From assembly GCA_964351865.1 (NCBI GenBank), contig CAYGPJ010000003.1, forward strand, positions 73,553 to 137,552: a DNA stretch of 64,000 nucleotides. The letters run 5' to 3'. Numbering within the stretch: the stretch's first letter is position 1; every line of letters begins with the position of its first letter. The position numbers and the translations under genes are program-made. This DNA comes from an uncultured Blastochloridaceae bacterium (GTDB taxonomy: Bacteria > Verrucomicrobiota > Verrucomicrobiia > Methylacidiphilales > JBCBYL01). Shown here in pieces: positions 1-48,182 of this stretch. A model generated the notes under the pieces. It was not told the origin of the DNA. It saw nothing but the letters and a program-made list of their open reading frames with translations, and made no database searches.

Positions 1-1486
1 TGTGGTCCTGCACGTTGCAGATCGGGTTGTCGGCCCAACCGTAGCGGACGGCAACCGGTTTCGACACCTCAGGACAGGTCAGGGTGATTTCGTTGTTAGC
101 GGTGATTTCCGCTGCGGCAGGATGAAAAACCTGGTCGGCTCCTGCCATCACAAAACCGATCACTTCTTGGGAATCATAGCAGCGTAATCCGTCTGCGCTG
201 ACATTTGAAAATTTCAGTACCACGCGTGAATCCTCTATTTTCATGCTAGCAAAGGATGGGCTGCGGTAATTCATATCGAATCCATAGTCGTTAGCGAGGG
301 CCCAACGGGAGAGGCGTGAAGCCACGGTGTATTTATCTCGCGGGTGGATGTCGTTAGTCTCTCCGGAGTCAATGATCACAGCCTGCCCTGTGTGAGGCAC
401 ATCCAAGGTTTGACTTTGTGCTTCGCGCAGGAAGGCCCAGGTGCTGTTATCCTGATGGAGTTGGGGTTCCCGGTAATCGGCCAGTTGCACCCAGTAAAAC
501 GGGAACTCACCCACGCCCCACTGATCCCGGTAGGTTTTGATCAACACCGTCATGAGTTGGCGGTAGGTTTGATGGCGGGAGGAATTGCTCTCGCCCTGAT
601 ACCAGATGAAACCGCGGATGCCGTATCCGATAATCGGATGGGCCACTCCGTTGTAAATATTGGCGGGGCGATGACGATCGTAACGCGGATCGTGGGGTTC
701 ACGTGGCTTGCGGCCTTGCTTGCCATTGGACTTCCATTCTTCGACTTTTTGTTTCCATTCGCGGACCTCTTGCTGGAAAGAGTCGTCGGTGTAATCTGCT
801 AATCGCGTTTTCCACTCTTCCAGATACGGACTAAATTCAGAGTACTGTTCCAGCACGTCGCGTGGCACCCAGGCCTCGGCGGATGATCCGCCCCATGGGG
901 TATCAATCAGGCCGATGGGAACGTCGAGAGCACCTTGCAGGGTGCGACCGAAGTAATACGCAATCGCAGAATGGTCGGCGACGGCTTCCGGACTACAGAC
1001 ACTCCATGCCCCCTCGAAGTTGTCCTGAGGTTGCTGGGAGCCAAGGCGGGGGACGGTGATGAGACGAATGTTCGGGTGGTTGGCCGCGGCGATTTCTACC
1101 TCGGCGCCTTTGGCTCGGACCAGCGGCCATTCCATGTTAGATTGTCCGGCAGCAACCCAGACCTCTCCCACCAGCACGTCTGAGAAGGTGGTTGCATTGA
1201 CGGTCAACGTGTGGGGACCACCGGCAGGCATCGGTTCCAGGAAGGCTTTCCATTTTCCGTCTTCGTCAGCCTGAGTGGTTACGGTCTGTTGAGCCAGTTT
1301 CAGCTTAATGCTGGCGCCGGGGTCGGAACGCCCCCAGACCGGGATCGGCGCATCCCGTTGCAGCACCATGTGATCAGAGAAAATATTGGGCAGCGAAACT
1401 TCAGCCTTGGAAGTCTTGGTGCAAGAGGAGAGGAATAGGGCAACTGCGGCTACAATTGAAAAAACGAATATACGTTGGGGATTCAT
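1..1486 (-). CDS. SGNH-type carbohydrate esterase, sialate O-acetylesterase-like (DUF303-like); 3' end runs off the left window edge
   Basis: Absent from the supplied ORF track because it is open to the window edge. My translation from ATG at 1486 gives MNPQRIFVFSIVAAVALFLSSCTK, a lipoprotein-type signal. It then shows VWVAAGQSNMEW, DTPWGGSSAEAW, FIWYQGESN and DIHPRDK, which are SGNH-hydrolase blocks as in sialate 9-O-acetylesterases. Confidence 0.8.
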   Translation of the reverse strand, partial: MNPQRIFVFSIVAAVALFLSSCTKTSKAEVSLPNIFSDHMVLQRDAPIPVWGRSDPGASIKLKLAQQTVTTQADEDGKWKAFLEPMPAGGPHTLTVNATTFSDVLVGEVWVAAGQSNMEWPLVRAKGAEVEIAAANHPNIRLITVPRLGSQQPQDNFEGAWSVCSPEAVADHSAIAYYFGRTLQGALDVPIGLIDTPWGGSSAEAWVPRDVLEQYSEFSPYLEEWKTRLADYTDDSFQQEVREWKQKVEEWKSNGKQGRKPREPHDPRYDRHRPANIYNGVAHPIIGYGIRGFIWYQGESNSSRHQTYRQLMTVLIKTYRDQWGVGEFPFYWVQLADYREPQLHQDNSTWAFLREAQSQTLDVPHTGQAVIIDSGETNDIHPRDKYTVASRLSRWALANDYGFDMNYRSPSFASMKIEDSRVVLKFSNVSADGLRCYDSQEVIGFVMAGADQVFHPAAAEITANNEITLTCPEVSKPVAVRYGWADNPICNVQDH

Positions 1487-1526: not shown

Positions 1527-3413
1527 TTATTCTTTCGGTTTCTCCTCTTTCTTTTTCCGGTAATATTCCTGTAGCACATAGAAGGCATCCTTCTTCTGGC
1601 CTCGTTCGGAGATGAGCCCTTTGCGATTAAAGTAGTCTTGCACGCGAGGGAGCATCCGGCGCGGAGAACGGAAATCCATCAACAACCACGGTGCCGTGCC
1701 CCGGATAAAGGGGATTTTATCGATCATTGTTACCTGGTTTTTATAAAGCTCGGCCAGAAACTCCTCACTCCATACCGTATCCTTGTCGGCCCGATAGCCT
1801 TGCAAGGCACCGCCTCCGAATTCACTGAAGACCACGGGTTTTTGGTAAGGGGTTTCCCAGACCACATCCCAGACCGACGGATCATTGCGCTCTCCATACC
1901 ATCCTTGATATTGGTTGCAGCCGATCACGTCGAGGTATTTGCCCAGCGGATCATTAATGACAATTTTACGGATGGCACCTTCAAAATTATCGGTGCGACC
2001 ATCGACGTATCCTTTTTCTGCCAGAATGGCCGCAGTGATCAGGCGCGTGGGGTCCTGTTGGCGTGCCAGATTGGCCAGGTTACCCAGAAACTTTAGCCGG
2101 GCATCGCTTAAGCGTGTTTCGTTGGCCACAGACCAGAGCACCACCGAAGCTCGATTTTTGTCGCGGGTGATCATCTGCGACAACATCTTGCGTGCGTTGC
2201 GATCCACCACCGGATCTTCCCAACTGATGGCCCAATAGAGCGGAATTTCGGACCAGACCATCAGCCCCATCTCATCCGCCATCCGCACCATATGTTCGTT
2301 ATGCGGGTAGTGGGCCAGCCGCACAAAGTTACAGCCGAGTTCCTTCGCCCACCCCAGTAAAATTTTAGCATCTTCCGGAGAATGGGCGCGTCCGGTCCGA
2401 ATAGGGGCTTCTTCGTGAACACTGATGCCGCGAATGAAAATCGACTCGCCATTCAGCAGAATATCGCGTCCCTTGACCTGAATGCAGCGGAAACCGATCT
2501 TATCCTCGATCGTGTCGGTCTGGGCGCTGAGTTGAACTTGATAGAGTTTCGGGTTCTCCGGCGACCACAAATCCAGCTTGGCATCGAATTCGAATTCCGC
2601 CCGGCCCTGGCTGTTCGTTTTGCCGGAATATTCAATGTCCGCTTCCGGAATGCGAATGGTAAATTCCTGATTCTTTTTTTCACCGTCTAATTGAATCCAT
2701 CCGGCAATGCGCTCCATGGAGTCTTTCTTAAGTTGCACTTTGTAATCGTGGATGAAGGTCTTTTCTTCTTCGATCAGCATGACGCGGCGGGTCAAGCCGC
2801 CGTAGTTCCACCAGTCACGCATCAGGGTCGGGATGGCTTTCGCCATCCGGGTATTGTCCACCAGAACCACCAGGGTGTTGCCTGTGGGCTTTACCTTATC
2901 CGTGATCTCGTAACTGAAAGGAGTGAATCCTCCCTCGTGGCGACCCAGTTCTTCGGCATTCAGGTAAACAATGGACTTGTAATTGGCGGCTCCAAAATAG
3001 ACGAATAAACGTTTACCTGCTTCCAGATCGTAGTCGAAATTTCTTTTGTACCAGATCGCTCCTTCGTAGAAGAACAGCCGCTCATCCTGCGTGTTCCAAT
3101 CTCCTGGCACTTGCAGCGTCTCACCATTTTCAAAGCCGTATTCCATCTTATCGTATTTTTCTTTAGCCACCGCCGCGTAGCTGAACTGCCCTTCGCCTCC
3201 CACTTTACGCTCTGCGAGATCATTGCTGAGAAAGCCGCGCAGGTAGCGATCGATAATCACTTCCCAGGTGCCGTTGAGCGAAGTGGTCTTGCGGTGATCT
3301 ACGTTGATCATCGCCGCATCATAAGTGCTTTCCTGCGCACACGCTGAAAAAACCAGCGGATACAGCAGCACGATGATTAATTTAAGTGGAAAAATAACTA
3401 AGGAGTGTTTCAT
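1527..3413 (-). CDS. glycoside hydrolase family 2 (beta-glucuronidase/beta-galactosidase-like), secreted
   Basis: 628-aa ORF with signal MKHSLVIFPLKLIIVLLYPLVFSACA. GH2 motifs are NFVRLAHYPHNE, the acid/base-type WSVANE and the nucleophile region VFSEFGGG. Confidence 0.85.
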   Translation of the reverse strand: MKHSLVIFPLKLIIVLLYPLVFSACAQESTYDAAMINVDHRKTTSLNGTWEVIIDRYLRGFLSNDLAERKVGGEGQFSYAAVAKEKYDKMEYGFENGETLQVPGDWNTQDERLFFYEGAIWYKRNFDYDLEAGKRLFVYFGAANYKSIVYLNAEELGRHEGGFTPFSYEITDKVKPTGNTLVVLVDNTRMAKAIPTLMRDWWNYGGLTRRVMLIEEEKTFIHDYKVQLKKDSMERIAGWIQLDGEKKNQEFTIRIPEADIEYSGKTNSQGRAEFEFDAKLDLWSPENPKLYQVQLSAQTDTIEDKIGFRCIQVKGRDILLNGESIFIRGISVHEEAPIRTGRAHSPEDAKILLGWAKELGCNFVRLAHYPHNEHMVRMADEMGLMVWSEIPLYWAISWEDPVVDRNARKMLSQMITRDKNRASVVLWSVANETRLSDARLKFLGNLANLARQQDPTRLITAAILAEKGYVDGRTDNFEGAIRKIVINDPLGKYLDVIGCNQYQGWYGERNDPSVWDVVWETPYQKPVVFSEFGGGALQGYRADKDTVWSEEFLAELYKNQVTMIDKIPFIRGTAPWLLMDFRSPRRMLPRVQDYFNRKGLISERGQKKDAFYVLQEYYRKKKEEKPKE

Positions 3414-3551
3414 AAGAATATCGGGTTGGAATATGTTCGCAAATAGATTGCAATGGGTTGTTTAATAAATATTATATTATTCATCATTTCCCGCAAGCGT
3501 ATTTTACAGGATAATAAGAGGGTAGAGAGTGTTGAAAGATATTACGAGTTT

Positions 3552-4955
3552 ATGAATCGACTTAAATACGGGCTTAGTCTGATGCTGCTGGGGCTGCTGA
3601 TCCAGTGTGCCCCGGCTGACGAAAGAACGAACATTATTCATATTGTGGTGGATGACCTGGGGGTGATGGATGTCGGGTTTATGGGAGATAAGCGATATCA
3701 CACTCCTCACATCGACCGGTTGGCTGGACAGAGTATGGTCTTTACGGAAGGCTATGCTCCTGCGGCCAATTGTGCGCCTAGTCGCGCCTGTGTCCTGACC
3801 GGTCAGAACCCGATGGTGCACGGGGTGTACACCGTGGGAAGTTCAGAACGAGGTCAGGTCGCGACGCGTCAACTCATCCCGACGGTTAATACCCCCTATG
3901 TGGCCGACGAACTTACGCTGTTACCTGAGGTCTTCAAACGTGAAGGCTACTTGACCGCTCAAATCGGAAAGTGGCATGTCGGGTATGATCCGGAAACGCA
4001 AGGGGTTGATATCAATATTGCAGGCACCCATCGGGGCGGTCCGGGCAACAAGGGCGGTTATTTCAGCCCCTACCACAATCCGAAATTACCGGATGGACCG
4101 GCAGGAGAGTATCTGACGGATCGCTTGACCTCGGAAGCGATTCAATTTCTGGAACAGCATCAGGACCAGAAGTTCTTTCTATATTTCCCCTTCTTTACGG
4201 TGCATACGCCGATTCAAGGCAAACCGGAGTTGGTGCAAAAATATACAGGCCGAACCGACGTGAATGCAGAGTATGCAGCGATGGTAGAAAGTCTGGATGA
4301 AAATATCGGCCGATTAATGAACGCGCTGGACCGTCTGAAGTTGTCAGAAAATACCGTGGTCGTCTTTACCTCGGACAATGGGGGTATCCGCAAGTTCTCT
4401 AAACAGGATCCCTATCGTGCTGGTAAGGGATCATACTATGAAGGGGGCGTGCGCGTGCCGTTTACCGTTCGATGGCCCGGTCAGATTCCAGCCGGAAGCC
4501 GATCCGATGTGCCGGTCACGGGGTTCGACTTCTATCCGACCTACCTGGAAATACTGGGAGTAGAGGCGGATAAACCGCTGGACGGGGTCAGCCTGCTGCC
4601 GCTGCTAAAACGAAGTGGAACCATTGAGCCGCGACCACTTTTCTGGCATTTCCCGGTTTATCTTCAGGCTTATGATCCGAAAACGGATGATGGCCGTGAT
4701 CCGTTATTCCGGACAAGGCCGGGTTCCACCATGCGATACGGGCATTGGAAGCTGCACCAGTATTTTGAGGACGGTGCTTACGAGCTCTATAATCTGAGCA
4801 GCGATGTGGGCGAAAGGAATAACCTGGCGCCATCCATGCCGGAAAAAGTCGAAGAACTGGCAGCGATGCTGGATGAGTGGAGAGCAAAAAACAACGCCCC
4901 GGTTCCCACGCAAAAAAATCCGGCTTTTCAGCCTGACGCTGACCCGATGCCGTGA
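3552..4955 (+). CDS. Cys-type (formylglycine) sulfatase, secreted
   Basis: C-x-P-x-R motif CAPSRACVLTG, plus IVVDDLG, GKWH and FTSDNGG. I moved the start to ATG 3552 (MNRLKYGLSLMLLGLLIQCAP signal) instead of the track start 3453. Confidence 0.9.
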   Translation: MNRLKYGLSLMLLGLLIQCAPADERTNIIHIVVDDLGVMDVGFMGDKRYHTPHIDRLAGQSMVFTEGYAPAANCAPSRACVLTGQNPMVHGVYTVGSSERGQVATRQLIPTVNTPYVADELTLLPEVFKREGYLTAQIGKWHVGYDPETQGVDINIAGTHRGGPGNKGGYFSPYHNPKLPDGPAGEYLTDRLTSEAIQFLEQHQDQKFFLYFPFFTVHTPIQGKPELVQKYTGRTDVNAEYAAMVESLDENIGRLMNALDRLKLSENTVVVFTSDNGGIRKFSKQDPYRAGKGSYYEGGVRVPFTVRWPGQIPAGSRSDVPVTGFDFYPTYLEILGVEADKPLDGVSLLPLLKRSGTIEPRPLFWHFPVYLQAYDPKTDDGRDPLFRTRPGSTMRYGHWKLHQYFEDGAYELYNLSSDVGERNNLAPSMPEKVEELAAMLDEWRAKNNAPVPTQKNPAFQPDADPMP

Positions 4956-5100
4956 AGTAGCAAATGGGTTCCACGTTCACCGAGGTAGTGGTGTGCTCTC
5001 TCCTTGCATATGACCTGAGAACGGTATTAGCGTAAATAGGTGTTTTTTCATTACTTCACTTACTGACTTGATTATCTTAAAACTATCGAATTTTCACCGC

Positions 5101-6975
5101 ATGAAGCACCCGCTCCAAACTTCTTTCTTTGCCTGCTCTTGGGGACACGGAGCCGTGATTTGCAACCCGCGACAGGTAATTCGGAAGCTTGGTGCAGGGT
5201 TTTGCTGCGTTTTAATTTTATTCGGTTCCAGCTCGCAGGCCCCTGCCATGGGTGCGAAGCCGGCGATCAACCCGCCTGAAATAGGGAGTGGCCCTAATGT
5301 CATCGTGATCATGACGGATGATCAAGGGTGGGGCGATCTGAGCTTTCATGGAAACACGAACCTCGAAACACCCCACCTTGACTCGCTCGCAGAAAACGGT
5401 GTGGCATTTAAGTATTTCTACGTCTCCCCGGTTTGTTCGCCGACCCGGGCCGAGTTCCTTACCGGGCGTTATCATAGGCGAACCGGAGTGACCAGCACCA
5501 GCCAGGGAGGAGAACGCATCCATCATGACGAGACAACCATTGCCGACGTCTTCAAGGCAGCCGGATATGCGACGGGTGTCTTCGGAAAATGGCACAACGG
5601 CAGCCAGTGGCCCTACCATCCTAATGCCCGTGGCTTCGATGAGTTCTACGGTTTTACCTCGGGACACTGGGGTTATTACTTTGATACGGAAATGGAGCAC
5701 AATAGCCGTTTCGTTCAAGGAGTGGGTTACATCGTCGACGATCTCACGAACCGGGCCATTCAATTCATCAGTGAAAATCGCAATAGACCGTTTTTTTGCT
5801 ACGTTCCCTATAACGCGCCACACACGCCAATGCAGGTGCCTGATGCGTATTGGGATTCTTTCAGAAGCGCTGAACTGTCTCTGCGCCACCGGGATCCAGG
5901 GAGGGAAGACCTCGACTTCACCCGGGCCGCCTTGGCCATGTGCGAGAACATTGACTGGAATGTGGGGCGGCTTCTGAAAGCGCTGGATCAATTGGACATA
6001 ACACAGAATACGGTCGTTCTCTTCCTGAGCGATAACGGGCCGAATTCCTTGCGGTGGAACGGAGGGATGAGGGGTAGAAAAGGTTCCACCGACGAAGGTG
6101 GCGTTCGGTCGCCGCTTTTCATCCAATGGCCGGGAACCATTCCGGCGAAGACACAGGTATCGGAAATCGCTGGAGCGATTGATCTTCTCCCGACCCTGGC
6201 CGACCTCTGCGGGATACCAGTCCGCACTCATAAAACTTTGGACGGCGTGAGTTTGAAACCGCTGATCCTGCACAGCGATAGGCTCCCTCCTTCAGAGAGG
6301 CTTCTTTTCAGTGCCTGGCGGGACCGCGTTAGTGTTCGCACCCAACAATACCGACTCGATTATCAAGGGCGGCTGTATGACATGGAGAACGATCCGGGAC
6401 AACGCAGAGACATCAGCGCGGAGCACGCGGAACTAACCAGTCGACTCAAACAAGCTGTGGAAATGTGGCAAAGAGAATCACTCGGCCCTTCAAGTCTAGA
6501 CATGCCTTTCACGGTTGGCCATCCGGACGAACCTGTTACCAATCTTCCTGCCCGCGATGGAGAAGCGACGGGAGGGATTAAAAGAAGCAGTCCCTATCCC
6601 AACTGTTCCTTTTTTACCAACTGGCAGAATACAGAAGACTCGATCACTTGGAATGTCGAGATCCTTACCCCCGGTAAGTATGAAGTCAAAATTGACTACA
6701 CCTGCGAGGAAGCCAACACAGGAGTTGTCTTGGAACTAACGTTTTTAGAAGCCAGGGTAACGAGCAAGATCAATGAAGCTCACGACCCGCCCTTGCTCGG
6801 GGAAGCTGCCAATCGTGTGCCGGGAAGCGAATCCTATGTAAAGCGATTTAAGTCCAAAACATTGGGGGCACTCACTCTCCCTTCAGAGGAGGGACTGCTG
6901 ACACTGCGGGCGACCGAGATTCCTGGTAGTGGGGCGATTGATCTGAGACGACTGATTCTGACCCGTTTGGATTGA
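5101..6975 (+). CDS. Cys-type sulfatase with ~157-aa non-catalytic C-terminal extension
   Basis: CSPTRAEFLTG formylglycine motif, plus IMTDDQGWGD, GKWH and LSDNGP. The probable start is ATG 5101 (MKHPLQ...). The C-terminal tail runs from MPFTVGHPDEP (6502) to the end. Confidence 0.85.
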   Translation: MKHPLQTSFFACSWGHGAVICNPRQVIRKLGAGFCCVLILFGSSSQAPAMGAKPAINPPEIGSGPNVIVIMTDDQGWGDLSFHGNTNLETPHLDSLAENGVAFKYFYVSPVCSPTRAEFLTGRYHRRTGVTSTSQGGERIHHDETTIADVFKAAGYATGVFGKWHNGSQWPYHPNARGFDEFYGFTSGHWGYYFDTEMEHNSRFVQGVGYIVDDLTNRAIQFISENRNRPFFCYVPYNAPHTPMQVPDAYWDSFRSAELSLRHRDPGREDLDFTRAALAMCENIDWNVGRLLKALDQLDITQNTVVLFLSDNGPNSLRWNGGMRGRKGSTDEGGVRSPLFIQWPGTIPAKTQVSEIAGAIDLLPTLADLCGIPVRTHKTLDGVSLKPLILHSDRLPPSERLLFSAWRDRVSVRTQQYRLDYQGRLYDMENDPGQRRDISAEHAELTSRLKQAVEMWQRESLGPSSLDMPFTVGHPDEPVTNLPARDGEATGGIKRSSPYPNCSFFTNWQNTEDSITWNVEILTPGKYEVKIDYTCEEANTGVVLELTFLEARVTSKINEAHDPPLLGEAANRVPGSESYVKRFKSKTLGALTLPSEEGLLTLRATEIPGSGAIDLRRLILTRLD

Positions 6976-7139
6976 ACACGGCAAAAGAATCCCAAAGATA
7001 TTACACAGCAAACTGGATTCGCTTATTTTTTAGAATGTCAAAATAGTGTCCCAATATTTTCCGTTGCAAGTCATGGCCGGTCGTTGCGAGTGAAAAAACG
7101 CTAGATACGTAAGCTGTTGGTTAACAGTTGAAAAGAGGG

Positions 7140-7605
7140 CGGACAGGGTGGGATGGTTCTGAAAGGCTAGCTCCTTTCATTAGTCGCTATGAGGACTACG
7201 TCTTGTTTGATATGTCACTTATGTGACAGCGACCAAACCCACATTTCGTCTTCGATTCAAGGTGGGTGAGGAACCAACCCAGACAGATTATGGCCCTAGT
7301 AGAATCGACACGGACAGGGTGGGATGACTGATTACCTTTGGTACTCATTGCGGGGAGTTTGACTTTGTTATTTGGAGCTTCGTTGGCACGAAGACCGCCA
7401 AACCCACGGGCTGCATTCAGCCTATGGCTGAACGTGGGTTCTGTGACACGGACAGGGTGGGAATGAATGATTACCTTAGGTAATCATTGTGCAAAGGTTG
7501 AGCATAGCTTATTTGAATCTTCGCTTACGCGAAATGCACCAAACCCACGGGCTGCATTCAGCCTGCGGCTGAACGTGGGTGCGAACACACCCTGTTCGAG
7601 GTAAT
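7140..7605 (-). repeat. three tandem ~140-170-bp units downstream of tRNA-Ser, each beginning with a copy of the tRNA 3' terminal 15 nt
   Basis: CGGACAGGGTGGGAT occurs at 7140-7154, 7311-7325 and 7449-7463 (the last with 1 mismatch) and in the genuine tRNA end at 7606-7620. Each unit carries an ACCCAC...GTGGGT hairpin (7237-7267, 7401-7440, 7542-7580). Confidence 0.75.
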
Positions 7606-7690
7606 CGGACAGGGTGGGATTCGAACCCACGGGACCTTGCGGCCCAATAGTTTTCAAGACTATCGCGATCGACCACTCTGCCACCTGTCC
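7606..7690 (-). tRNA. tRNA-Ser (anticodon UGA), class II with long variable arm, no encoded CCA
   Basis: The reverse complement is GGACAGGTGGCAGAGTGGTCGATCGCGATAGTCTTGAAAACTATTGGGCCGCAAGGTCCCGTGGGTTCGAATCCCACCCTGTCCG. It has acceptor GGACAGG/CCTGTCC, anticodon stem-loop ATAGT-CTTGAAA-ACTAT and T arm TGGGT-TCGAATC-CCACC. Confidence 0.9.
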
Positions 7691-7697
7691 GAGGTAA

Positions 7698-7725
7698 ACA
7701 ATAGGGAGTGCAGGCCACTGGGCAA
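7698..7725 (-). promoter_or_regulatory. candidate sigma70-type promoter of tRNA-Ser
   Basis: The minus strand reads TTGCCC (7725-7720), a 16-nt spacer, TATTGT (7703-7698), then 7 nt to the tRNA 5' end. Confidence 0.3.
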
Positions 7726-7848
7726 GTAGGAAATCTTAGGGTCTAAGAACGAGTGGTCGATTCCATCTCCCATTACCGCCCCGTCACCCGCTCGGTCTGC
7801 AGTAAGTGCCTCCGGCATGATTGGGGAATCGCTTACGCGATATGCAGG

Positions 7849-7912
7849 CTGCCACCTGTCCGAGGTAAAAATAGGGAGTGCAGGCCACTGGCCAAGGAGG
7901 AAATCTTAGGGT
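7849..7912 (-). repeat. duplicate of the tRNA-Ser 5' end (~14 nt) plus its upstream promoter region
   Basis: 7849-7912 aligns with 7678-7742 with 2 substitutions and 1 single-nt indel over ~64 nt; CTGCCACCTGTCCGAGGTAAA is identical. A further shared block TTACCGCCCCGT lies at 7773 and 7942, giving a period of ~170 bp. Confidence 0.75.
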
Positions 7913-8021
7913 GTGCGGAGGAGCCCTGAACGCATTCGGGGTTACCGCCCCGTTCCCCAAACGATGGGTTGTTTCATTTATTGCTTTGCGAGCAGGTGTG
8001 TATTTGTATGCTTACCAAACT

Positions 8022-9107
8022 ATGTCAAAAGATGGTCACAATTATGCCCCCAGCAGTTCAACAACACCGAAAGTCGTGGAATCTGGAGAATTTGTCTTCG
8101 CGGCAGCTCATCTGGATCACGGGCATATTTTTGGTCAGGTGAATGGTCTGCTGGAAGCCGGGGGAACGTTGAAATATATCTACGATACCGACCCGGAGCG
8201 ACTTAAAGGGTTTCTGGAAAAGTATCAGGACTCAGGGGTGACGGCTGTGGATTCGTTGGAGGGAATTTTAGATGATCCCGCGATTCAGATGGTGGCAGCG
8301 GCGGCCATTCCTTCGGAACGCGGCCCGTTGGGATGCCGGGTGATGGAGGCGGGTAAGGATTACTTTACCGACAAGTGTCCGTTTACGACGCTGGAACAAC
8401 TGGAACAGGCCCGATCCGTCGCGGCTCGAACCGGGCGGAAATATATCGTCTATTATAGTGAGCGCGTGCACGTCGAGGCGGCATGGTATGCGGATGAACT
8501 GATTCAAGCTGGTGCCATCGGGGATATCGTTCATATGGCGATCACCGGTCCACACCGACTGAACAAACCAGTGCGCCCGGAGTGGTTTTTCAAGAAAGCT
8601 CAGTATGGTGGAATCTTAACCGATATCTGTTCGCACCAGGTGGATCAGTTTTTGCACTACGCGCGGGCTGAGGATGCCGAGGTGCTGCACGCACGAGTGG
8701 AGAACTTTGCGAATCCGGCAGAGCCGGAGTTTGAGGATTTCGGGGAGGCCGTGTTGAAACTGGATACCAATGCTTCCTGCATCAGTCGGGTCGACTGGTT
8801 CACTCCGGACGGACTTTGCAGTTGGGGCGATGGTAGAACCCAGATTATCGGAACCAAAGGATTTATGGAAATTCGCAAATATCTGGATCTGGCACGTTCC
8901 ACGGTTGGGGACCGACTCTTTCTGGTCGACGGCGAGAAAGAAGTGGAAATCGAATGCCATGGTAAAGTCGGGTTTCCGTTTTTTGGTCAGTTGATTCTGG
9001 ATTGTTTGAATCGCACCGAAAATGCCATGACCCAGGCACATGCCTTTAAGGCCGCCGAGTTGTCATTGCAAGCACAAGAATTTGCGGATATAAAACGTGG
9101 CAAATGA
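8022..9107 (+). CDS. Gfo/Idh/MocA-family oxidoreductase (atypical N-terminus)
   Basis: Typical Gfo/Idh/MocA length and layout. I moved the start to ATG 8022 (MSKDGHNY) because the track's 7878 extension covers the tRNA-promoter duplicate. Confidence 0.7.
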   Translation: MSKDGHNYAPSSSTTPKVVESGEFVFAAAHLDHGHIFGQVNGLLEAGGTLKYIYDTDPERLKGFLEKYQDSGVTAVDSLEGILDDPAIQMVAAAAIPSERGPLGCRVMEAGKDYFTDKCPFTTLEQLEQARSVAARTGRKYIVYYSERVHVEAAWYADELIQAGAIGDIVHMAITGPHRLNKPVRPEWFFKKAQYGGILTDICSHQVDQFLHYARAEDAEVLHARVENFANPAEPEFEDFGEAVLKLDTNASCISRVDWFTPDGLCSWGDGRTQIIGTKGFMEIRKYLDLARSTVGDRLFLVDGEKEVEIECHGKVGFPFFGQLILDCLNRTENAMTQAHAFKAAELSLQAQEFADIKRGK

Positions 9108-9958
9108 AATCAAGTTGCCTGATCGTCGGCTGCGGATATGTAGGCCGGGCGCTGGCGGATGTGCTGGTTCAACAGAACTGGCGAGTGGGTGGAGTCATCA
9201 AAAGCGATGCCTCATGCGCTGAATTAACCGGGGAGGGCCTCAAGTTGTTTCAAGGTGATGTGGCTCAGAAAATTTTTTGGGAAAATCTTCCCTCGAATTG
9301 GGATCATGTGATTTATTGCCCGTCCACCGGTGGCGGGGGACTTGCCGCCTATCAACAGATTCATGATGTCGGATTGAGACACTGCCTGAAGTGGATCAGG
9401 CCGAAAGCTCGTTTATTCTATACCTCATCCACGTCTGTTTATAGCCAGAATGATGGCGAGTGGGTGGATGAAACCTCCGACCTGAAACTTGGGTTCGCGT
9501 CGGCGCAGGTGTTGGTGAAAGCCGAGCAGCGTGTCACATCAGCTGGATACACCGTATTGCGGCTGGGGGGGATTTACGGGCCTGATCGCGGAGTGTTGCT
9601 CAAACGGCTGCAGACCGGTAAAGCCATCATGCCCGAACAGGATCCGAAATGGCTGAACCTGATATATCTTGCAGACATTCTGGCGGCCATTCAGCACGGC
9701 TTGAACGGCAAGCTGCATTCAGGTGAAGTCTACAACGTGATTGATAATGAACCGGCAGCCTATCAGGATATTTATCAATGGCTGTGTGATCAACTCGACC
9801 TGCCACTCCCGCAGGTCGGAACTCCGGAGTATTTCGGGAAACGAGGTATTACCAATAAACGGGTTTCGAATAAGAAATTAAGAGCGACCGGCTGGCATCC
9901 GCAGTATCCCAGTTTTCGGGACGGGTATGAGCAAATGCTAAATGCAGATAAGATCTGA
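9104..9958 (+). CDS. SDR-family NAD(P)-dependent epimerase/dehydratase-like protein
   Basis: N-terminal Rossmann motif LIVGCGYVGRAL in a 284-aa protein. Its ATG overlaps the upstream stop (ATGA at 9104-9107). Confidence 0.7.
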   Translation: MKSSCLIVGCGYVGRALADVLVQQNWRVGGVIKSDASCAELTGEGLKLFQGDVAQKIFWENLPSNWDHVIYCPSTGGGGLAAYQQIHDVGLRHCLKWIRPKARLFYTSSTSVYSQNDGEWVDETSDLKLGFASAQVLVKAEQRVTSAGYTVLRLGGIYGPDRGVLLKRLQTGKAIMPEQDPKWLNLIYLADILAAIQHGLNGKLHSGEVYNVIDNEPAAYQDIYQWLCDQLDLPLPQVGTPEYFGKRGITNKRVSNKKLRATGWHPQYPSFRDGYEQMLNADKI

Positions 9959-10036
9959 AGAAGCTTTAACTCCGAAAACGGAGATTAAACTAAACAAATT
10001 TGAAGTCTATCTGGACGCATTGCCATGCTGTAGTTT

Positions 10037-10585
10037 TCTTATCCTACAGTATTGTGTAGGGTGAGAATATCCGTAGGATTTCTTACCACCGCCAATCGAA
10101 CGAGTGATAAATTTCCATGGCGCAACCGCCCAGACTACATTCAATCTATGATAGAAAATGCGAAATAACGTATTTTTTGACATATGGTGTGGCAGCAAAG
10201 AAAAATGTGCTGAATAACAGCCACTATTTCGAAGCTTTACAGCAAGCAATCCAACAGGCTGATCGCTGGCACATTGAGTGTGTCATTGTGATGCCGGATC
10301 ATGTGCATTTACTGACGGCTCCGTTTAATCGCGATGAATCCGTTGGGAAATTGGCCGGATTTCTAAAGAAGAGATCTAAATTTTTATGTAAAGGCAGCTG
10401 GGATTGGCAGCCGGGATCATTTGATCATCTGTTACGATCCGCCGAGTCTGCTGAACAAAAGTGGAAGTATATTCGCGAGAATCCGGTTCGGGCAGGTCTA
10501 GTGGAGCGTTGGCAGGATTGGCCGTATCGGTTTGGGTATGGCGACTGATAAGATCAACCCGGCTGCTGCCGGATGGAATCTTATC

Positions 10586-10591: not shown

Positions 10592-11629
<1,038 letters not shown>

Positions 11630-11635
11630 CTTGCC

Positions 11636-12877
11636 CTATGCCTGAGCTTTAGTCGGCTCCGGGATGCCCAGCAATAGACCCAGTGAAACAGTCATTAGTA
11701 TCATTACAATCACGCAACTAAGGACAATGGAGCCGGTGGTTTCATGCAACACTGAAGCCAGTATGGTTGCTATGACTAGACTCGGAACGCTCAGGAATGA
11801 AACGATGGCCATGAAGGTCGGACGTCGTCGTTTGGGAGCCAGGGTGGTCATGAGTGTCGTGGCACAAATATGATCCGTATAAAATGCGTAACCGAACAGA
11901 AAATAAATCAGGTAAAATCCCCAGGTGGAAGTATTGAATATTACAGCGACTGACATGATTAAAAATAGGACCTTTGCAACCAGTAGTGGAATCTTGGATC
12001 CAACACGATCACCCACTATTCCTGCGGTCACATTCCCAGCCATACCGCCAATCATATGAGCCACCAGCAGGAGGCCGACAAAACTTTCTGTTGCGCCGGT
12101 TTCATTCATGGCATGGAGTCCCAGAAAAGGAATGATCAGCAGGAAACTCACTCCCGTGCTCCGCATCAGGATAAAACGCAGCAAATGCGGTTGAGATTTT
12201 ATGAGAGGAATCAAGCTATGCAAATAGGCCCGGTAGGTCGTCGGTGAGTCCTCTGGTCGATGGTTTCGGTTGACTTCTTTGATGGTACAGAACAGGGCGT
12301 AAGACAGCATCATCAGGCTGAAGGTGATCAGATGCAGAATGCCGTAACCGACGGTGCCGGGAAATGCTTCGAGGATGAATTTGACAACGAGCCCAGCGAC
12401 GACGCCGAAGCTGCCTGCGACGACGTAGCGCACGGCCAGACTGGAATTGCGTCGGTTGGCGGGAACGACGCGCGAATAGAGTTCAAAGAATGCACTGATG
12501 GTGATGCCTCCCATCAGACCACTGACAAAAGGAGCGCTCAATACGATCGCCAAGGTGAGCCCCGGACGTGCTTCACCGATGAATAACAGTGACAGTCCAG
12601 CTATCAGGTAAGGCAGTCGTTGCAGCATACTGAAGAGCATGATGACGGGTTTGACTTCTTTACGTCTTTCAAACCAATGAGTCGTAAAAACAGAGGGCAG
12701 CATCAGACCGGCGACCATTAAAATCGGAACGATGGATACCATCCAGCTTGATCCCCCTAACGAAGCGACGATGATCGGGAGCACCGTTTCAGCGGACAGA
12801 AACGCGGCGCCGCCCATATACAATCCTCCCTCCACGGAAATGGCCCAGTAATTACGTTGGAGGAGTTTCTTTTTCAT
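11636..12877 (-). CDS. MFS transporter
   Basis: Polytopic hydrophobic protein of about 12 TM segments. I moved the start to ATG 12877 (MKKKLLQRNYW). It lies directly upstream of dinB on the same strand. Confidence 0.75.
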   Translation of the reverse strand: MKKKLLQRNYWAISVEGGLYMGGAAFLSAETVLPIIVASLGGSSWMVSIVPILMVAGLMLPSVFTTHWFERRKEVKPVIMLFSMLQRLPYLIAGLSLLFIGEARPGLTLAIVLSAPFVSGLMGGITISAFFELYSRVVPANRRNSSLAVRYVVAGSFGVVAGLVVKFILEAFPGTVGYGILHLITFSLMMLSYALFCTIKEVNRNHRPEDSPTTYRAYLHSLIPLIKSQPHLLRFILMRSTGVSFLLIIPFLGLHAMNETGATESFVGLLLVAHMIGGMAGNVTAGIVGDRVGSKIPLLVAKVLFLIMSVAVIFNTSTWGFYLIYFLFGYAFYTDHICATTLMTTLAPKRRRPTFMAIVSFLSVPSLVIATILASVLHETTGSIVLSCVIVMILMTVSLGLLLGIPEPTKAQA

Positions 12878-12999
12878 GCAGGGGAGATAAGGAATTAGCT
12901 CAGGATACAGGTCATGTCGACGATCAAACCTACAGCTGCAACATGGATTTAACATGCTCCGGCATTGACGGATGAGTGCAGACAGACCAGCATGTCGAC

Positions 13000-14343
13000 A
13001 TGAAATCCCTCATTCGCATCGTTCTTTCGCTGGTGGTCATTCTCGTGCTGGTTGCTGTAGGTTTTTTGGTGGTGCCCAAACTGTTGTATATGTTGCCACC
13101 GTTTCAGTCCTGGGTCGCTGGTCAGATTGATCAGCAAAGCGGAGGAAAGTTTTCCTTCGATTCGATCAAGGGGGATGCTTTTGAAGCTCAGTTAACCGGC
13201 GCGTGGTTGGATATGGGTGAAGGTAATTCGAATGTCTTTCAGGCGAAGTTCGATGATTTGACGGCGACCTTTGAGTTGCTGCCAGTGGCCATGTTAAAAT
13301 TGGATCTGAAAGAACTCAACGCCACGGGCGGGGAAGTCGTACTGAACTTGAGTGGGGGTGACTACGAGCATGTCCGGATGCCGGTGAGCGCCGAGAGCCT
13401 GGTGATGCAAGGCGGACGGCTGGTGATCCGAAATCTGCAAGGTTACGAGTGTGCGCTGGAAGATTGTAACTTATCAGTCGATGCGACCGAGACTGGTAAA
13501 AAGGGAAATTTTACAGCAGCTACCGGAAAAGTTGGCGTGGTTGATCTCAGTGGTATTGCTGGTGAATTTGAATTCAGTGAACAGGGCCTGAAGGTGACCG
13601 CGTTCAGTGCCACCATTCCGGGGGAGAGCCAACTATCACTGGATGGATGGCTGGTTTTGAGTGAAGAGGGAGCACCGATCAAGGATGCGGACATGCAAGT
13701 GAAGACCGAGAATGTGCAGGCATTGCTGACGGCACTGGGTTATTCAGATCGTTTTAATGGCAGTGCGGAAGTAAACACGAAGTTCTCCGGCAGCTTCCGG
13801 CCGGAGTTGAAGGATTTGACGGGTGAGGGCACGGCTGCGGTCTCCGGCATCTCGGCTAAAGTTAAATTGCCCAGCTACCCCGGATTTGAAGGCAGTGGCA
13901 TTCTGTCGGATCTGAAACAGATTGACGGATTGGAAGGCTCGGTGCCCTTCAAGTTGGCGGGCGACCAGATTGTGGTCGATCAACTGACTCTGAAAAATGA
14001 GACCATGGACGTCAGTGGCAGTCTACAGGTTGGCTATGATAAGACCATTCGTGGCGATCAGACGCTGCTGGCGGCTCCGTCACTGGCGGCCGGTATTCCT
14101 GACGTGGCGCAAGGGGTGTTTAAGAAAAACGAATCCGGGTGGACGATTATTCCGTTTACCTTTCAGGGCACCTCGAATGCGCCTGCTGCCAACGCAGGTT
14201 CCGTGGTGAGTAAAGCACTGATGAATCCGGTCAATGCGGTGAAAGGCGTGGGCGGTATGTTCGGTGGTTTGTTCGGGGGTGGGGATAAGAAGAAGCCGGA
14301 GCAGGAAGCGGTCGCACCTGCCGAGCCAGCGCCAGAGAATTAG
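13000..14343 (+). CDS. membrane-anchored hypothetical protein, AsmA-like organisation
   Basis: N-terminal anchor MKSLIRIVLSLVVILVLVAVGFLVV, then a long beta-rich Gly/Ser/Thr-rich region and a Gly-rich, charged tail. The family call is tentative. Confidence 0.4.
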   Translation: MKSLIRIVLSLVVILVLVAVGFLVVPKLLYMLPPFQSWVAGQIDQQSGGKFSFDSIKGDAFEAQLTGAWLDMGEGNSNVFQAKFDDLTATFELLPVAMLKLDLKELNATGGEVVLNLSGGDYEHVRMPVSAESLVMQGGRLVIRNLQGYECALEDCNLSVDATETGKKGNFTAATGKVGVVDLSGIAGEFEFSEQGLKVTAFSATIPGESQLSLDGWLVLSEEGAPIKDADMQVKTENVQALLTALGYSDRFNGSAEVNTKFSGSFRPELKDLTGEGTAAVSGISAKVKLPSYPGFEGSGILSDLKQIDGLEGSVPFKLAGDQIVVDQLTLKNETMDVSGSLQVGYDKTIRGDQTLLAAPSLAAGIPDVAQGVFKKNESGWTIIPFTFQGTSNAPAANAGSVVSKALMNPVNAVKGVGGMFGGLFGGGDKKKPEQEAVAPAEPAPEN

Positions 14344-14406
14344 TCGTGTATCGAAGCGCTTAAGGAGGTGGAGAACACCAACTTAAGGATTTTCCTGTAG
14401 CCCGAC

Positions 14407-14521
14407 GGAACGCGACCGTCTCGGACGCACAGTTTGGCGTCCCGCCGAACTGCTTCCCGAAGAGAGACTTGGGCGAGATCCCGATACCCTGCGTGATCGG
14501 GAAGCAAGATGCTCGCGTTCC
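14407..14521. other. 115-nt GC-rich multi-stem element in a convergent intergenic region (possible ncRNA or composite REP)
   Basis: Closing stem GGAACGCGA (14407-15) / TCGCGTTCC (14513-21). Internal stems are GGACGC (14423-28)/GCGTCC (14437-42) and GCTTCCCGA (14452-60)/TCGGGAAGC (14497-505). Confidence 0.3.
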
Positions 14522-14570
14522 AGGCTAACGCCGGCAGCCATCTTAAAACGCTCTTATGTTAGTGCCATTC

Positions 14571-14615
14571 GGGACGGAGGTAACCCCGAAAGCATTCGCG
14601 GGTTACCTCCGTCCC
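14571..14615. terminator. 16-bp-stem hairpin between convergent genes (bidirectional terminator candidate and member of a repeated hairpin family)
   Basis: GGGACGGAGGTAACCC (14571-86) pairs with GGGTTACCTCCGTCCC (14600-15). A T-run (catttttta) follows. The same GGGACGGAGG..CCTCCGTCCC core recurs at 54672-54718. Confidence 0.5.
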
Positions 14616-14631
14616 CATTTGTGGGCATTTT

Positions 14632-15291
14632 TTATAGAAGTTCCGAGGGGTGCTCGATGATGAAATCTGCGCCGGTGCGTTCTAGTTCTGCCCGATCACG
14701 GAATCCCCACAGTACGCCGACGGCGGTCATGCCGGCACGTTTAGCAGTAAGCATGTCGACATCCGTATCTCCGAAATACAGGCAGGATTTCGGCGCGGCT
14801 CCCAAGGTGGCGGCAACCTGTAATGCGCCTTTGGGATCCGGTTTTTTCGGAACATGATCGCCGCTGCCGAGCACGATCTGCCAGCGCCACTGAGACATAA
14901 AACGTTCGACACACAGTTCGGCATGCGGTTGAAGTTTATTCGTCAGTATGGTGAGAGGAATATCGTATTGGTTCAAGGCCGTCAGCAATTCCGGTATACC
15001 ATCATAGAGTGAGGTGGATTTATCGTCCTGGACGGTGCATTCGGTTTGGTAAGTTTCCACCAATCGGGTAACACGGGGGTCATCGACTGACTCGGCCTGA
15101 ATGGCTCGCTGAAACAAAACATCCGGCCCATCACCGACAAAATGACAGAAGGCTTCCTGCGGGTGCATATCGTGGCCGTGTTGTTGCAGCGAGCGGTTGG
15201 CCGCTTCGGAGATGTCTTGCAGAGTATCGAGCAGCGTGCCGTCCAGATCGAAAACAGCGGCTCCGTAGTTACTGAGTTTAAAGTCCTTCAT
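14632..15291 (-). CDS. HAD-family hydrolase (phosphoglycolate phosphatase-like)
   Basis: Motif I is VFDLDGTLLDT and motif IV is GDTDVDMLTAKRAGM. Confidence 0.8.
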   Translation of the reverse strand: MKDFKLSNYGAAVFDLDGTLLDTLQDISEAANRSLQQHGHDMHPQEAFCHFVGDGPDVLFQRAIQAESVDDPRVTRLVETYQTECTVQDDKSTSLYDGIPELLTALNQYDIPLTILTNKLQPHAELCVERFMSQWRWQIVLGSGDHVPKKPDPKGALQVAATLGAAPKSCLYFGDTDVDMLTAKRAGMTAVGVLWGFRDRAELERTGADFIIEHPSELL

Positions 15292-15428
15292 GATGATTGG
15301 CTCCGTAGCATAATGCGCTTAAGTGTCTCATCCCAGTTCAAAAGACAATTTCCACGACTCGAGATCGCCTTAAGTTAACCTTTGCATTTTATGCCATAAA
15401 TATAGGGTAGTGCTACAGATAACTTTCT

Positions 15429-16406: not shown

Positions 16407-16437
16407 ATTGAAACAGGGTGAATACGGACCCTAGATT

Positions 16438-46704: not shown

Positions 46705-46705
46705 T

Positions 46706-47011
46706 TTAGACCCCTCTCGGGTGAGAGGCCCGCTTGCGCTGTGGCGCGGTTAGATCTCTAAGCCGTAATTCCGGAGTGGTCTCTGGAATGATTGCCCCCA
46801 ATTTATCCGCATATCCCAAAACTCCCAAAGCTCTTACCGCATGGCGTAACTCAACTGTCCCATCGCCAGCCTCAATCTTTCGGTAGGTGGGAATACTGAT
46901 GCCTAGAATTTTACACATATGAGCCTGGGATAAATTTCTGCGCAACCGCTCTTTTTGGATGCGATTACCCAATTCTTCCATAGCTTCATTTTCACCTAAT
47001 ATAGAAAACAT
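46706..47011 (-). CDS. hipB: XRE-family HTH antitoxin, HipB-like
   Basis: LGNRIQKERLRRNLSQAHMCKILGISIPTYRKIEAG. The stop lies 1 nt upstream of the hipA ATG. The start is uncertain: 47074, 47011 and 46981 are all in frame. Confidence 0.8.
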   Translation of the reverse strand: MFSILGENEAMEELGNRIQKERLRRNLSQAHMCKILGISIPTYRKIEAGDGTVELRHAVRALGVLGYADKLGAIIPETTPELRLRDLTAPQRKRASHPRGV

Positions 47012-47446: not shown

Positions 47447-47464
47447 AGGTTGATCCTACGTCGT

Positions 47465-48044
47465 GCCCGCCTTCGCACAAGGCTTCGGCGCGAGCCTTCG
47501 TCATGATAGAAATATCGCAAATCTAATGAGTTATCGGACATTAAAACTAGAAGGCGAGCTTGCTAGCCGAAGCCTTGGCGAAGGCTAGCGGGTGACCGGA
47601 CTACGCCTAGGCTACGTCCCGGCAGGCGAGATTATCCTTACAGGTTGCACCTGTGACGCTCTGCGGAAAGCACGTTGTGATGGTTGGATTGCCTTTCAGG
47701 CATAGCAGTTCCTCCGTCGCAGAGGCTATGGAGGACACGCGAAATAGGTTCTCATTTCTTTGGCAATGATTTCCCGCCTACGCACAAGGCTACGGCGCGG
47801 ACCTTCGCCAGAAAAAGAGATTGCGAGAGTGAGTTAGGAGAGTTGCAACCAGAATCAAAAGGCGAGCTTGCTGGCCGTAGCCTTGGCGAAGGCCAGCGGG
47901 TGACGAGAGGTTATCCTCACAGGTTACACCTGTGACGCTCTGCGGGGTGCACTTCGTGGGATTTGTACTGCCGTTCCGGCATGGCAGTCGAACTGCGTTC
48001 TCATCTCGTCAGGAAATGATTTAATACCAGAAAGGTATTAAATC
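47465..48044 (-). repeat. two tandem ~280-310-bp structured repeat units between the GIY-YIG gene and tRNA-Gly, each containing a copy of the tRNA-Gly 3' end
   Basis: Unit landmarks: A motif at 47469-89 and 47776-96; B motif (inverted complement of A) at 47566-85 and 47874-93; tRNA 3' copy AGCGGGTGAC at 47587-96 and CAGCGGGTGACGAGA at 47894-908; hairpin ACAGGT-nnn-ACCTGT at 47640-54 and 47919-33. Confidence 0.75.
48018..48044 (-). terminator. hairpin immediately 3' of tRNA-Gly
   Basis: GATTTAATACC-agaaa-GGTATTAAATC forms an 11-bp stem abutting the tRNA 3' end. The U-tract is weak (ATTTCC on the minus strand). Confidence 0.45.
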
Positions 48045-48116
<72 letters not shown>

Positions 48117-48182
48117 ATCATGCGAGCTAGAAATATGGTGGAGCCTCTGAATTCTGGCAAGGGGAAAATCGGCTAATTTTCA

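Follow-up and report, generated by a model that had tools for sequence, protein, structure and literature searches.

tRNA-linked repeats (TLRs) have been known in Escherichia coli since 1978 according to Stenum et al. (2021, PMC8144298), who cite Egan & Landy 1978 and Rudd 1999 as earlier sources. In E. coli K-12, 22 of these repeats are distributed over ten loci, with one to five per locus, and in each of them 18–19 bp match the 3' end of the preceding tRNA or rRNA gene exactly. The class comprises the 178-bp repeats of tyrT with the RtT RNA (RF00391, rttR), together with rrA, rrB, and rrF situated behind 5S rRNA. The repeats are transcribed with the upstream gene and processed; a role has been proposed for only three of the 22, namely RrA, RrB, and RrF, which bind Hfq and CsrA, and Stenum et al. 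suggest that the repeated end serves recognition by RNase E. An early claim that connected rtT with the stringent response was later retracted (PMC8144298), and no use is made of it here. Covariation and a tandem G-A motif in RtT have been reported in a preprint (10.1101/2020.02.04.933952). Here, we describe a 64-kb stretch of DNA from a member of the Verrucomicrobiota (the window, at its full length), in which the tRNA-Ser(UGA) gene is followed by three structured units of ~140–170 nt, arranged head-to-tail in the 3' trailer. The locus is probably a TLR array, of a known but poorly understood kind, here in a distant phylum; the assignment of the window to the Verrucomicrobiota rests on its MgtE and its oxidoreductase.

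At tyrT–tyrV of E. coli, four units are called RtT by Rfam with 133–137 bits. Each unit consists, in order, of GGGGAAGGAT, which is an inverted copy of the T-stem and acceptor; the bases GAGAA; a short hairpin; AAGGTTCGA, corresponding to the T-stem 5' strand and the start of the loop; ~65 nt of hairpins; and AATCCTTCCCCCACCACCA, the last 19 nt of tRNA-Tyr. The inverted copy pairs with the tRNA-end copy in the Rfam consensus structure, closing the unit. The RtT-type junction is defined here as an inverted T-arm copy with the loop TGAGAA instead of TTCGAA, followed by a direct GTTCGA. The annotated rttR RNA (171 nt) starts 8 nt past the annotated end of the tyrV gene and stops at the end of the first copy, and E. 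coli strains contain 1–14 RtT copies (median 3). Behind 5S rRNA, the rrB unit lies between the terminators T1 and T2; GGATTTGAAC and a GCCCGGAGGG hairpin are among its parts, and it closes with the 3' end of 5S. The widely used rrnB T1–T2 region (L175, 258–425) holds this repeat, and its core of GGATTTGAAC, GTTGCGAAGCAAC, and GCCCGGAGGG resembles that of the tRNA-linked units.

The tRNA-Ser(UGA) gene and the copies of its 3' end

ARAGORN and the Rfam tRNA model (54.8 bits) agree on a single tRNA-Ser(UGA) gene on the minus strand at 7606..7690, with ends at 7605/7606 and 7690/7691. The discriminator is the G at 7606, and CCA is not encoded. The 14-mer CGGACAGGGTGGGA (plus strand) occurs at exactly four sites in the 64 kb, at 7140, 7311, 7449, and 7606. 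Read in the sense of the tRNA, it is TCCCACCCTGTCCG, the last 14 nt of tRNA-Ser, and the three copies behind the gene occupy 7449–7462, 7311–7324, and 7140–7153. The repeated block extends from the last T-loop base to the discriminator, equivalent to tRNA positions 60–73. The count in the 64 kb stays at four when up to two mismatches are allowed, and four matches occur in none of 100 shuffled sequences. The original prediction, made from the sequence alone, had a 15-nt tRNA end recurring three times downstream; 14 nt are exact everywhere, and the 15th base at 7449 is A, not T. The spacings that it gave, 171, 138, and 157 bp from 7140 towards the gene, are those of the 14-mer positions. The array is no assembly artefact: Logan contig L037, an independent assembly of the same genome, is identical to the window from 2380 to 7422 and ends within the second unit.

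At the level of sequence, the anatomy of the array, its conservation with compensatory changes in relatives, and its agreement with the hallmark of TLRs are established. Homology to the E. coli TLRs is not claimed; judged by sequence, what is shared comprises the architecture and the hallmark, and an RtT-type junction occurs in an orthologous unit in the relative L169 and in a second array behind tRNA-Gly.

Architecture of the three downstream units

The three units, U1 to U3, each of which rebuilds the 3' third of tRNA-Ser, lie in tandem on the minus strand, and their limits derive from repeat families, sequence reading, and folding. U1 (157 nt, 7449..7605) begins one base past the tRNA-Ser discriminator. 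Its first parts are a leader-like TTACCTC (7598–7604) and an acceptor-5'-like GAACAGG (7591–7597); together they form TTACCTCGAACAGG (7591–7604), which is identical at 13 of 14 positions to the tRNA leader and 5' end, TTACCTCGGACAGG, so that the degenerate 5' end originally noticed in the unit nearest the gene is borne out. These parts are followed by an inverted T-arm-like hairpin, GGGTGTGTTCGCACCC (7577–7592), in which GTGTG-TTCGCAC-CCACG is an imperfect inverted copy of the T-arm, and by a variable-arm-like hairpin (7557–7573), TTCAGCC-GCA-GGCTGAA, resembling the variable arm GGGCC-GCAA-GGTCC of tRNA-Ser. The next segment, CCCGTGGGTT (7542–7551), repeats in direct orientation, at 10/10 positions, the stretch of the tRNA that runs from the end of the variable arm through the T-stem 5' strand to the second loop base. 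After TGG, an insertion of ~75 nt carries the hairpins H2 (7520–7533, within an outer stem at 7489–7539) and H3 (7466–7488). The unit terminates in the tRNA-end copy (7449–7462), T-CCCAC-CCTGTCC-G, that is, the last loop base, the T-stem 3' strand, the acceptor 3' strand, and the discriminator.

U2 (138 nt, 7311..7448) is ~81% identical to U1 and was recovered by TRF with a period of 141 and 81% matches. Most of its 5' inverted copy is deleted, with CAGAACCCACG alone remaining. Its H2 (7378–7393) is unlike that of U1 in sequence, its H3 (7329–7347) contains one mismatch, and its tRNA-end copy is located at 7311–7324. U3 (171 nt, 7140..7310) is far more diverged in sequence from U1 and U2, and it has the same predicted architecture as U1, including the ACCCAC..GTGGGT hairpin. 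The closing helix of U3, GGGTTGGTTC/GAACCATCCC (7271–7280 with 7150–7159), contains non-tRNA bases, TGGTTC paired with GAACCA; its H2 (7213–7228), H3 (7160–7179), and tRNA-end copy (7140–7153) follow. The similarity among units extends well past the 15-mers, as the ~81% identity of U1 and U2 illustrates; a lack of such similarity had been named at the outset as an outcome that would refute the original prediction.

The insertion with its two hairpins separates the T-stem 5'-strand copy from the T-stem 3' strand by a similar length of 74–80 nt across the units, and the end copy follows GTGGGTTTGG after a gap of 77, 74, and 80 nt in U1, U2, and U3. CCAAACCCAC is found solely at 7233, 7398, and 7539, once per unit. 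The ACCCAC...GTGGGT hairpin, predicted to have a conserved stem and a free loop, is present in all three units; the loops of U1 and U2 differ by just 2 nt, and that of U3 differs throughout. GTGGGTT repeats the T-stem 5' strand directly and ACCCAC repeats it in inverted form, and on this sequence match the hairpin is tRNA-derived, an inverted T-stem strand paired with a direct one. H2 and H3 vary in sequence among the units with the pairing kept. The H2 stems are TTCGC/GCGAA in U1, CTTCG/CGAAG in U2, and TGTCAC/GTGACA in U3; the H3 stems are AATGATTACC/GGTAATCATT in U1, the same type with one mismatch in U2, and TGAAAGG/CCTTTCA in U3.

In the predicted fold of U1 (-55.6 kcal/mol, z = -4.98), a four-way junction is closed by pairing of the 5' and 3' ends. 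The leader/acceptor-like 5' segment pairs there with the 3' end copy, in agreement with the acceptor-stem-like pairing proposed originally for the pseudo-5' and pseudo-3' ends. U3 is likewise predicted to form a four-way junction closed by its 5' segment and the tRNA-end copy (z = -3.05), and the predicted fold of U2 has z = -2.83. No terminator-like site is predicted on the tRNA strand at 6900–8100, in sigma-70 promoter and terminator scans that were graded uninformative.

Orthologous units in related Verrucomicrobiota

Homologous units are located behind tRNA-Ser(UGA) in three other genomes. The unit in L162, whose MgtE is 87% identical to that of the window, has the U2-type H2, and its contig stops 122 nt past the tRNA. 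The unit in L164 (oxidoreductase 80% identical) is partial; it shares a run of 28 identical nt in the H2 region with U1 and is interrupted by a truncated fic gene. The single unit in L169 (oxidoreductase 77% identical) starts with GGTGGGATGAGAACCCACG, contains the RtT-type junction GGGATGAGAAC, continues with clear homology to U1 and U2, and ends in the 14-mer 443 bp past the tRNA's own copy; in place of H3 it has a 33-bp inverted repeat whose arms are 91% complementary and lie 188 nt apart. The U1-type and U2-type H2 "alleles" each recur in a different relative and therefore predate the split of the lineages.

Compensatory changes were assessed in an alignment of five related units (A2), with the helix model derived from U1. 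The proposed helices pair in 85% of the cells, compared with 33–38% with slid partners. Nine pairs are changed on both sides, a number reached by one of 500 shuffles, and the covariation score of 0.167 (0.092 ± 0.018 in the shuffles) lies above all 500. Since only five related sequences and a U1-derived structure are involved, these changes are supportive rather than decisive for conserved stems. The suggestion that the array is simply decaying does not hold against orthologous units with compensatory changes in three genomes and an upstream duplicate retained in L169 (83%).

No integrative element is present between the copies in L162, L164, or L169, and the 443 bp in L169 contain no open reading frame of an element; an intact element between two of the 15-mers in relatives was the finding that would have reduced the units to attachment (att) scars.

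Two of these loci bear signs of other events. The inverted repeat of L169 (190–443) looks like a miniature inverted-repeat element, and a Y1_Tnp gene (3221–3652, IS200/RAYT-like, weak match) lies ~2.5 kb off, between the epimerase and DinB. In L164 (~260–790, minus strand), the partial unit behind tRNA-Ser runs directly into the 5'-truncated fic, which retains its HPFEDGNGRIGR motif; this fusion points to a rearrangement or an island remnant at that locus.

Duplication of the promoter region and tRNA 5' end upstream

On the other side of the gene, the proximal upstream region (7691..7789, minus strand) contains a putative -35 (TTGCCC) and -10 (TATTGT) from sequence reading, which match the consensus at 8 of 12 positions; this is under the cut-off of the scanner, and the promoter scan reported no site. 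The region is conserved in L169, L162, and L164. A distal duplicate (7849..7958, minus strand) comprises the promoter region, an 8-nt leader, and the first 13 nt of the tRNA, with the pseudo-5' end at 7849–7861, and it is located 171 bp upstream of the original. Positions 7678–7698 and 7849–7869 are identical (21/21), 7697–7753 and 7867–7923 are 86% identical (57 nt), and 7773–7789 and 7942–7958 are 88% identical (17 nt). The alignment reproduces the predicted duplicate of ~64 nt at 171 bp, with two substitutions and one indel, and the last segment accounts for the weaker similarity reported up to ~7958.

A 59-nt remnant (7790..7848, minus strand), recognized as a repeat family and conserved in L169, lies between the two promoter copies. 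Within it, TGCATATCGCGTAAGCGA (7829–7846) matches the U1 H2 region at 17 of 18 positions. The upstream duplicate is also found in L169, with a spacing of 173 bp and 83% identity to the window, and it is absent from L162 and L164. It may be a relic of a tRNA-plus-unit block that was duplicated and then suffered an internal deletion.

A second array behind tRNA-Gly(GCC)

The window contains a second array, at 47587..48116 on the minus strand, identified by ARAGORN and sequence reading. The tRNA-Gly(GCC) gene (48045–48116) is followed by a hairpin (48018–48044) and by unit G1, which carries TGACGAGATGAGAACGCAGTTCGAC (47987–48011), an inverted tRNA-Gly T-arm copy with an RtT-type junction. This junction reads ATGAGAAC-GCA-GTTCGAC, in which the inverted T-arm with its TGAGAA loop precedes the direct GTTCGA; further hairpins follow, and the unit includes an exact 14-nt copy of tRNA-Gly positions 60–73 at 47895–47908. 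The boundaries of the copied block are thus the same for tRNA-Ser and tRNA-Gly. A second, more decayed unit ends at 47587–47597, ~308 bp further on. The RtT-type junction is found in G1 and in the L169 unit (GGTGGGATGAGAACCCACG); at the equivalent place, U1 has GTGTGTTCGCAC and U2 just CAGAAC. The tRNA-Gly of L162 has no unit behind it.

The scanned neighbours of tRNA-Ser encode two sulfatases, a glycosyl hydrolase, a GFO/IDH/MocA oxidoreductase, an epimerase, DinB, and an MFS transporter. No integrase was found among the flanking open reading frames scanned against Pfam or NCBIfam at either tRNA, and no copies of the array occur away from stable-RNA genes within the 64 kb. A hipBA-like toxin–antitoxin pair (45484–47074, minus strand) lies directly downstream of the tRNA-Gly array, with the HipA N- and C-terminal domains at 45484–46704, an HTH_3 protein at 46706–47074, and no integrase nearby. 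The distance from mgtE to DinB is ~41 kb in the window (about 11600–52900), and in L162 both lie within ~4.5 kb (11400–16800). Both tRNA loci are near the edges of this ~41-kb stretch, and the difference suggests that a large insertion or rearrangement, with the two tRNA loci as its limits, has taken place.

Similar units in other phyla

A genome scan for two tRNA-Ser ends 124–154 nt apart returned 36 loci. About 15 of them, mostly from Gemmatimonadota, are two adjacent tRNA-Ser genes and were set aside. The remaining ~20 contain a single tRNA-Ser, a terminator hairpin, a structured unit of ~100 nt, and a tRNA end, some with two or three tandem units. Their hosts belong to Clostridia, Alphaproteobacteria, Acidobacteriota, Verrucomicrobia, Saccharibacteria, and Gemmatimonadota. 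Many of the units open with the ATGAGAAC...GTTCGA junction, which is seen in Acidobacteria and Alphaproteobacteria, as in RtT. Nine units behind at least four different tRNA 3' ends were aligned, and six pairs of their closing helix have double changes that track the tRNA. In two Asticcacaulis species (L002, L028), the unit is 98% identical, compared with 64% for the adjacent terminator and 46–80% for the flanks, a difference that would reflect selection on the unit in other lineages and is counted in favour of a TLR array in the window. Altogether, TLR-like units are seen behind tRNA-Tyr, tRNA-Ser, tRNA-Gly, and others in Proteobacteria, Clostridia, Acidobacteriota, Verrucomicrobiota, Gemmatimonadota, and Saccharibacteria. 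Tentatively, these may be widespread selected structured elements, rebuilt on the 3' third of the upstream stable-RNA gene, with a closing helix that co-varies with tRNA identity; they would not then be peculiar to enterobacteria, and would be either a family of RNAs that mimic tRNA ends and have one function in common or a cryptic mobile element that copies the end of its target.

Several of these loci show features of their own. Between species, the tRNA-Ser units of L002/L028 (Asticcacaulis) and L006/L020 (rumen Clostridia) are 98–99% identical, with a terminator hairpin between tRNA and unit that is 64–72% identical and carries compensatory substitutions. In the rumen Clostridia L016, L031, L036, and L001, two unit types lie behind tRNA-Ser(CGA) in an order that differs among genomes; each unit is preceded by its own bidirectional terminator, and the loop of the central hairpin, CCGGNGG, is kept with a wholly different stem sequence.

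Units also occur at prophage ends. In the contig L087 (~9789–10340), an integrase-like 3' coding end is followed by a displaced tRNA 3' fragment, a terminator, and a unit ending in the same tRNA end; in L055 (~5790–5950), where no integrase was identified, the displaced tRNA 3' fragment is followed directly by the unit. In both contigs, the att site has the unit on its host side. Among at least 120 matches listed for the junction motif in viral contigs, nearly all are chance occurrences in genes, and only L055, L067, and L087, near contig ends, are unit-like. The window-type unit (GTGGGTTTGG..CCCACCCTGTCCG) has no match in the viral contigs. The same pattern has one match in metagenome contigs, which lies within a coding region without a tRNA and was dismissed as chance. 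A search of a phage collection with the RtT unit matched only a mis-filed Salmonella contig, and the sulfatase neighbour, utilized as a synteny probe, found a best relative that is 73% identical and not syntenic.

A possible mechanism and points against it

If the locus is a TLR array, the units would be transcribed together with the tRNA, since the stretch from the gene to the last unit has no predicted intrinsic terminator. Each unit would fold into a multi-branched structure with a closing helix formed by the inverted copy and the tRNA-end copy. The copied end could draw the machinery of tRNA 3'-end maturation, and a cut after every unit would free discrete small RNAs, the route by which rtT and RrB are freed in E. 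coli. The size of the array may change by unequal recombination or slippage between the copies.

Several results weigh against this interpretation. Compared with E. coli, the end copy of the window units has 14 nt, not 18–19, and CCA is not encoded; three of the missing bases are explained by the lack of an encoded CCA in this genome. Rfam model RF00391 (membership threshold 45 bits) gives no match at E ≤ 10 in 6500–8500 or 47300–48300. A weak model, R1, with 4.4 effective sequences, was built from E. coli, alphaproteobacterial, and two prophage-flank units and describes the closing helix, the GAGAA junction hairpin, and the CCCGAAGGG hairpin. It misses U1–U3 and assigns 9.7 bits (E = 2.3) to the tRNA-Gly unit. 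The tRNA-Ser units from other phyla that were held out reach 17–27 bits, but their tRNA-Ser tail is also present in the training set. An nhmmer profile of the unit cores, based on a poor alignment, likewise has no match in the window. Membership of U1–U3 in the E. coli family by sequence is therefore without support from RF00391 and R1, and the shared part is the architecture. Furthermore, just two substitutions separate the RtT-type junction from a plain inverted T loop, which makes convergence possible. For U1, folding is equally good on the antisense and the sense strand (z = -5.75 vs -4.98), and the folding energy is thus silent on the relevant strand and on whether RNA or DNA matters. Finally, the lost 5' inverted copy and the H3 mismatch of U2 indicate that some decay is under way.

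Alternative explanations

The array might instead be neutral debris, produced by repeated tandem duplication of the tRNA transcription unit, in which the extra copies are decaying pseudogenes and the hairpins are leftovers of tRNA arms. The 13/14 copy of the leader and 5' acceptor strand at the start of U1, its variable-arm-like hairpin and CCCGTGGGTT, the duplicated promoter with the first 13 nt of the tRNA, the lost 5' segment of U2, and the strong divergence of U3 are all compatible with such a history, and tyrT–tyrV of E. coli shows that tRNA-plus-unit blocks duplicate. But none of the units has a D arm or an anticodon arm, and neither ARAGORN nor the Rfam tRNA model (E ≤ 10) recognizes a tRNA in them. 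H2 and H3 differ in sequence between U1 and U3 with the pairing retained, and the orthologous units in three genomes keep their stems via double changes. A run of 28 nt in the H2 region is identical between the window and L164, although a flanking protein is just 80% identical, and the U1-type and U2-type H2, each found in a different relative, are older than the lineage split. Neutral debris is therefore an unlikely explanation. Between the two options offered originally, a tRNA-end-mimicking small element comes close to this evidence, and a tandem duplication that is simply decaying does not, given the units conserved in relatives. A small non-autonomous mobile element, which inserts behind stable-RNA genes and either copies the last 14–19 nt of its target or has the match maintained by gene conversion, would explain a similar core behind different tRNAs and, in E. 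coli, behind 5S rRNA. Units with ATGAGAAC...GTTCGA follow tRNA-Tyr, tRNA-Ser, tRNA-Gly, and two other tRNAs, with a closing helix that fits the local tRNA each time; E. coli rrB has GGATTTGAAC and the GCCCGGAGGG hairpin like tRNA-linked units, yet the 3' end of 5S; the tandem units of rumen Clostridia occur in different orders; and the tRNA-Gly of L162 lacks a unit. Set against this, the units have no associated transposase or recombinase, copies away from stable-RNA genes are missing from the 64 kb, the two-substitution distance of the junction leaves room for convergence, and no empty-site/filled-site pair with clean bounds was found, which makes such an element quite improbable.

The att identity blocks of integrative elements usually lie in the 3' part of the tRNA, from the T-loop to the discriminator (e.g. 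Williams 2002), and the repeated block here, from the last T-loop base to the discriminator, sits in that place. Elements with tRNA-targeting integrases could have been inserted repeatedly at the T-loop of tRNA-Ser and later deleted, each leaving an arm remnant and a displaced 3' fragment. Integrases use tRNA-Ser elsewhere, as seen from the integrase-like end and displaced fragment of L087 and the displaced fragment of L055, and mobile-looking genes are near, with hipBA after the tRNA-Gly array and a truncated fic at the L164 unit. The unit in L087 and L055 is nevertheless on the host side of the displaced fragment and so predates those insertions. Scars of integration would contain neither the inverted copy of the T-arm nor that of the leader and 5' acceptor, and would also lack the variable-arm-like hairpin and the T-stem 5' strand; moreover, one junction motif is found behind different tRNAs in several phyla. 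The flanking frames scanned at both tRNAs contain no integrase, the scanned viral contigs contain no window-type unit, and the 443 bp between the copies in L169 contain no frame of an element. Serial scars are thus a very unlikely origin; the original prediction had already doubted that plain scars could explain the locus, and the lack of an element between the copies and the extra tRNA-derived parts of the units agree with that doubt.

Other identities were tried and rejected. A tRNA pseudogene array was dismissed because the traceable parts are limited to the leader/5' acceptor, the variable-arm-like hairpin, the T-stem strands, and the 3' acceptor strand. The core does not fit a hammerhead ribozyme, ARAGORN is negative for a tmRNA-like domain, the inverted copy stops short of the CCA end that a retroelement primer-binding site would involve, and no genes associated with integron attC sites or IS200/IS605 ends are present in the window.

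Significance and comparison with known systems

The finding in the window is by itself of moderate interest, and the apparent pan-bacterial spread of such units is a lead to follow. The term "tRNA-linked repeat" was rarely met in a full-text literature search. If the arrays of the window and the units from at least six phyla form one class, its function and origin become testable by comparative genomics, which can ask which parts co-vary with the tRNA, which are constant, and which genomes gain or lose units. Such arrays have practical consequences as well. They break short-read assemblies, with one contig of the source genome and one of a relative ending in or just past the array, and they can pass for att scars in the mapping of genomic islands.

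Compared with att direct repeats, the window array similarly has repeats of the tRNA 3' part downstream of an intact gene, in a block ending exactly at the tRNA 3' end. It differs in that no element or integrase is found between or beside the repeats, inverted and 5'-derived parts are included, and compensatory changes occur in relatives.

A functional parallel, purely speculative, may be drawn with regulatory RNAs derived from tRNA and rRNA operons, such as 3'ETS-leuZ and RrA/B/F, which are by-products freed by the enzymes of stable-RNA processing, as the window units might be. 3'ETS-leuZ is reportedly a small-RNA sponge, described by Lalaouna and colleagues in 2015. By this analogy, a regulatory RNA cut from a stable-RNA operon would be the most plausible mode of action for the units, as speculation.

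The E. coli TLRs are the closest counterpart. Besides the shorter end copy, the window array is distinguished from them by the lack of sequence similarity of U1–U3 detectable by Rfam or R1, by insertion hairpins that are unrelated in sequence, by the lack of a GAGAA junction in U1–U3 (which the L169 orthologue has), by an upstream promoter/5'-end relic, and by its host, which belongs to the Verrucomicrobiota, not the Enterobacterales. In both systems, the units lie directly behind the gene on the same strand, the three tandem units of the window fall within the range of one to five, and the last bases of each unit reproduce the gene's 3' end exactly (14 nt here). Each is closed by a helix of the inverted copy and the end copy, with a hairpin insertion that splits the T-stem 5'-strand copy from the T-stem 3' strand, and the tRNA-plus-unit block itself appears to be duplicable, as at tyrT–tyrV.

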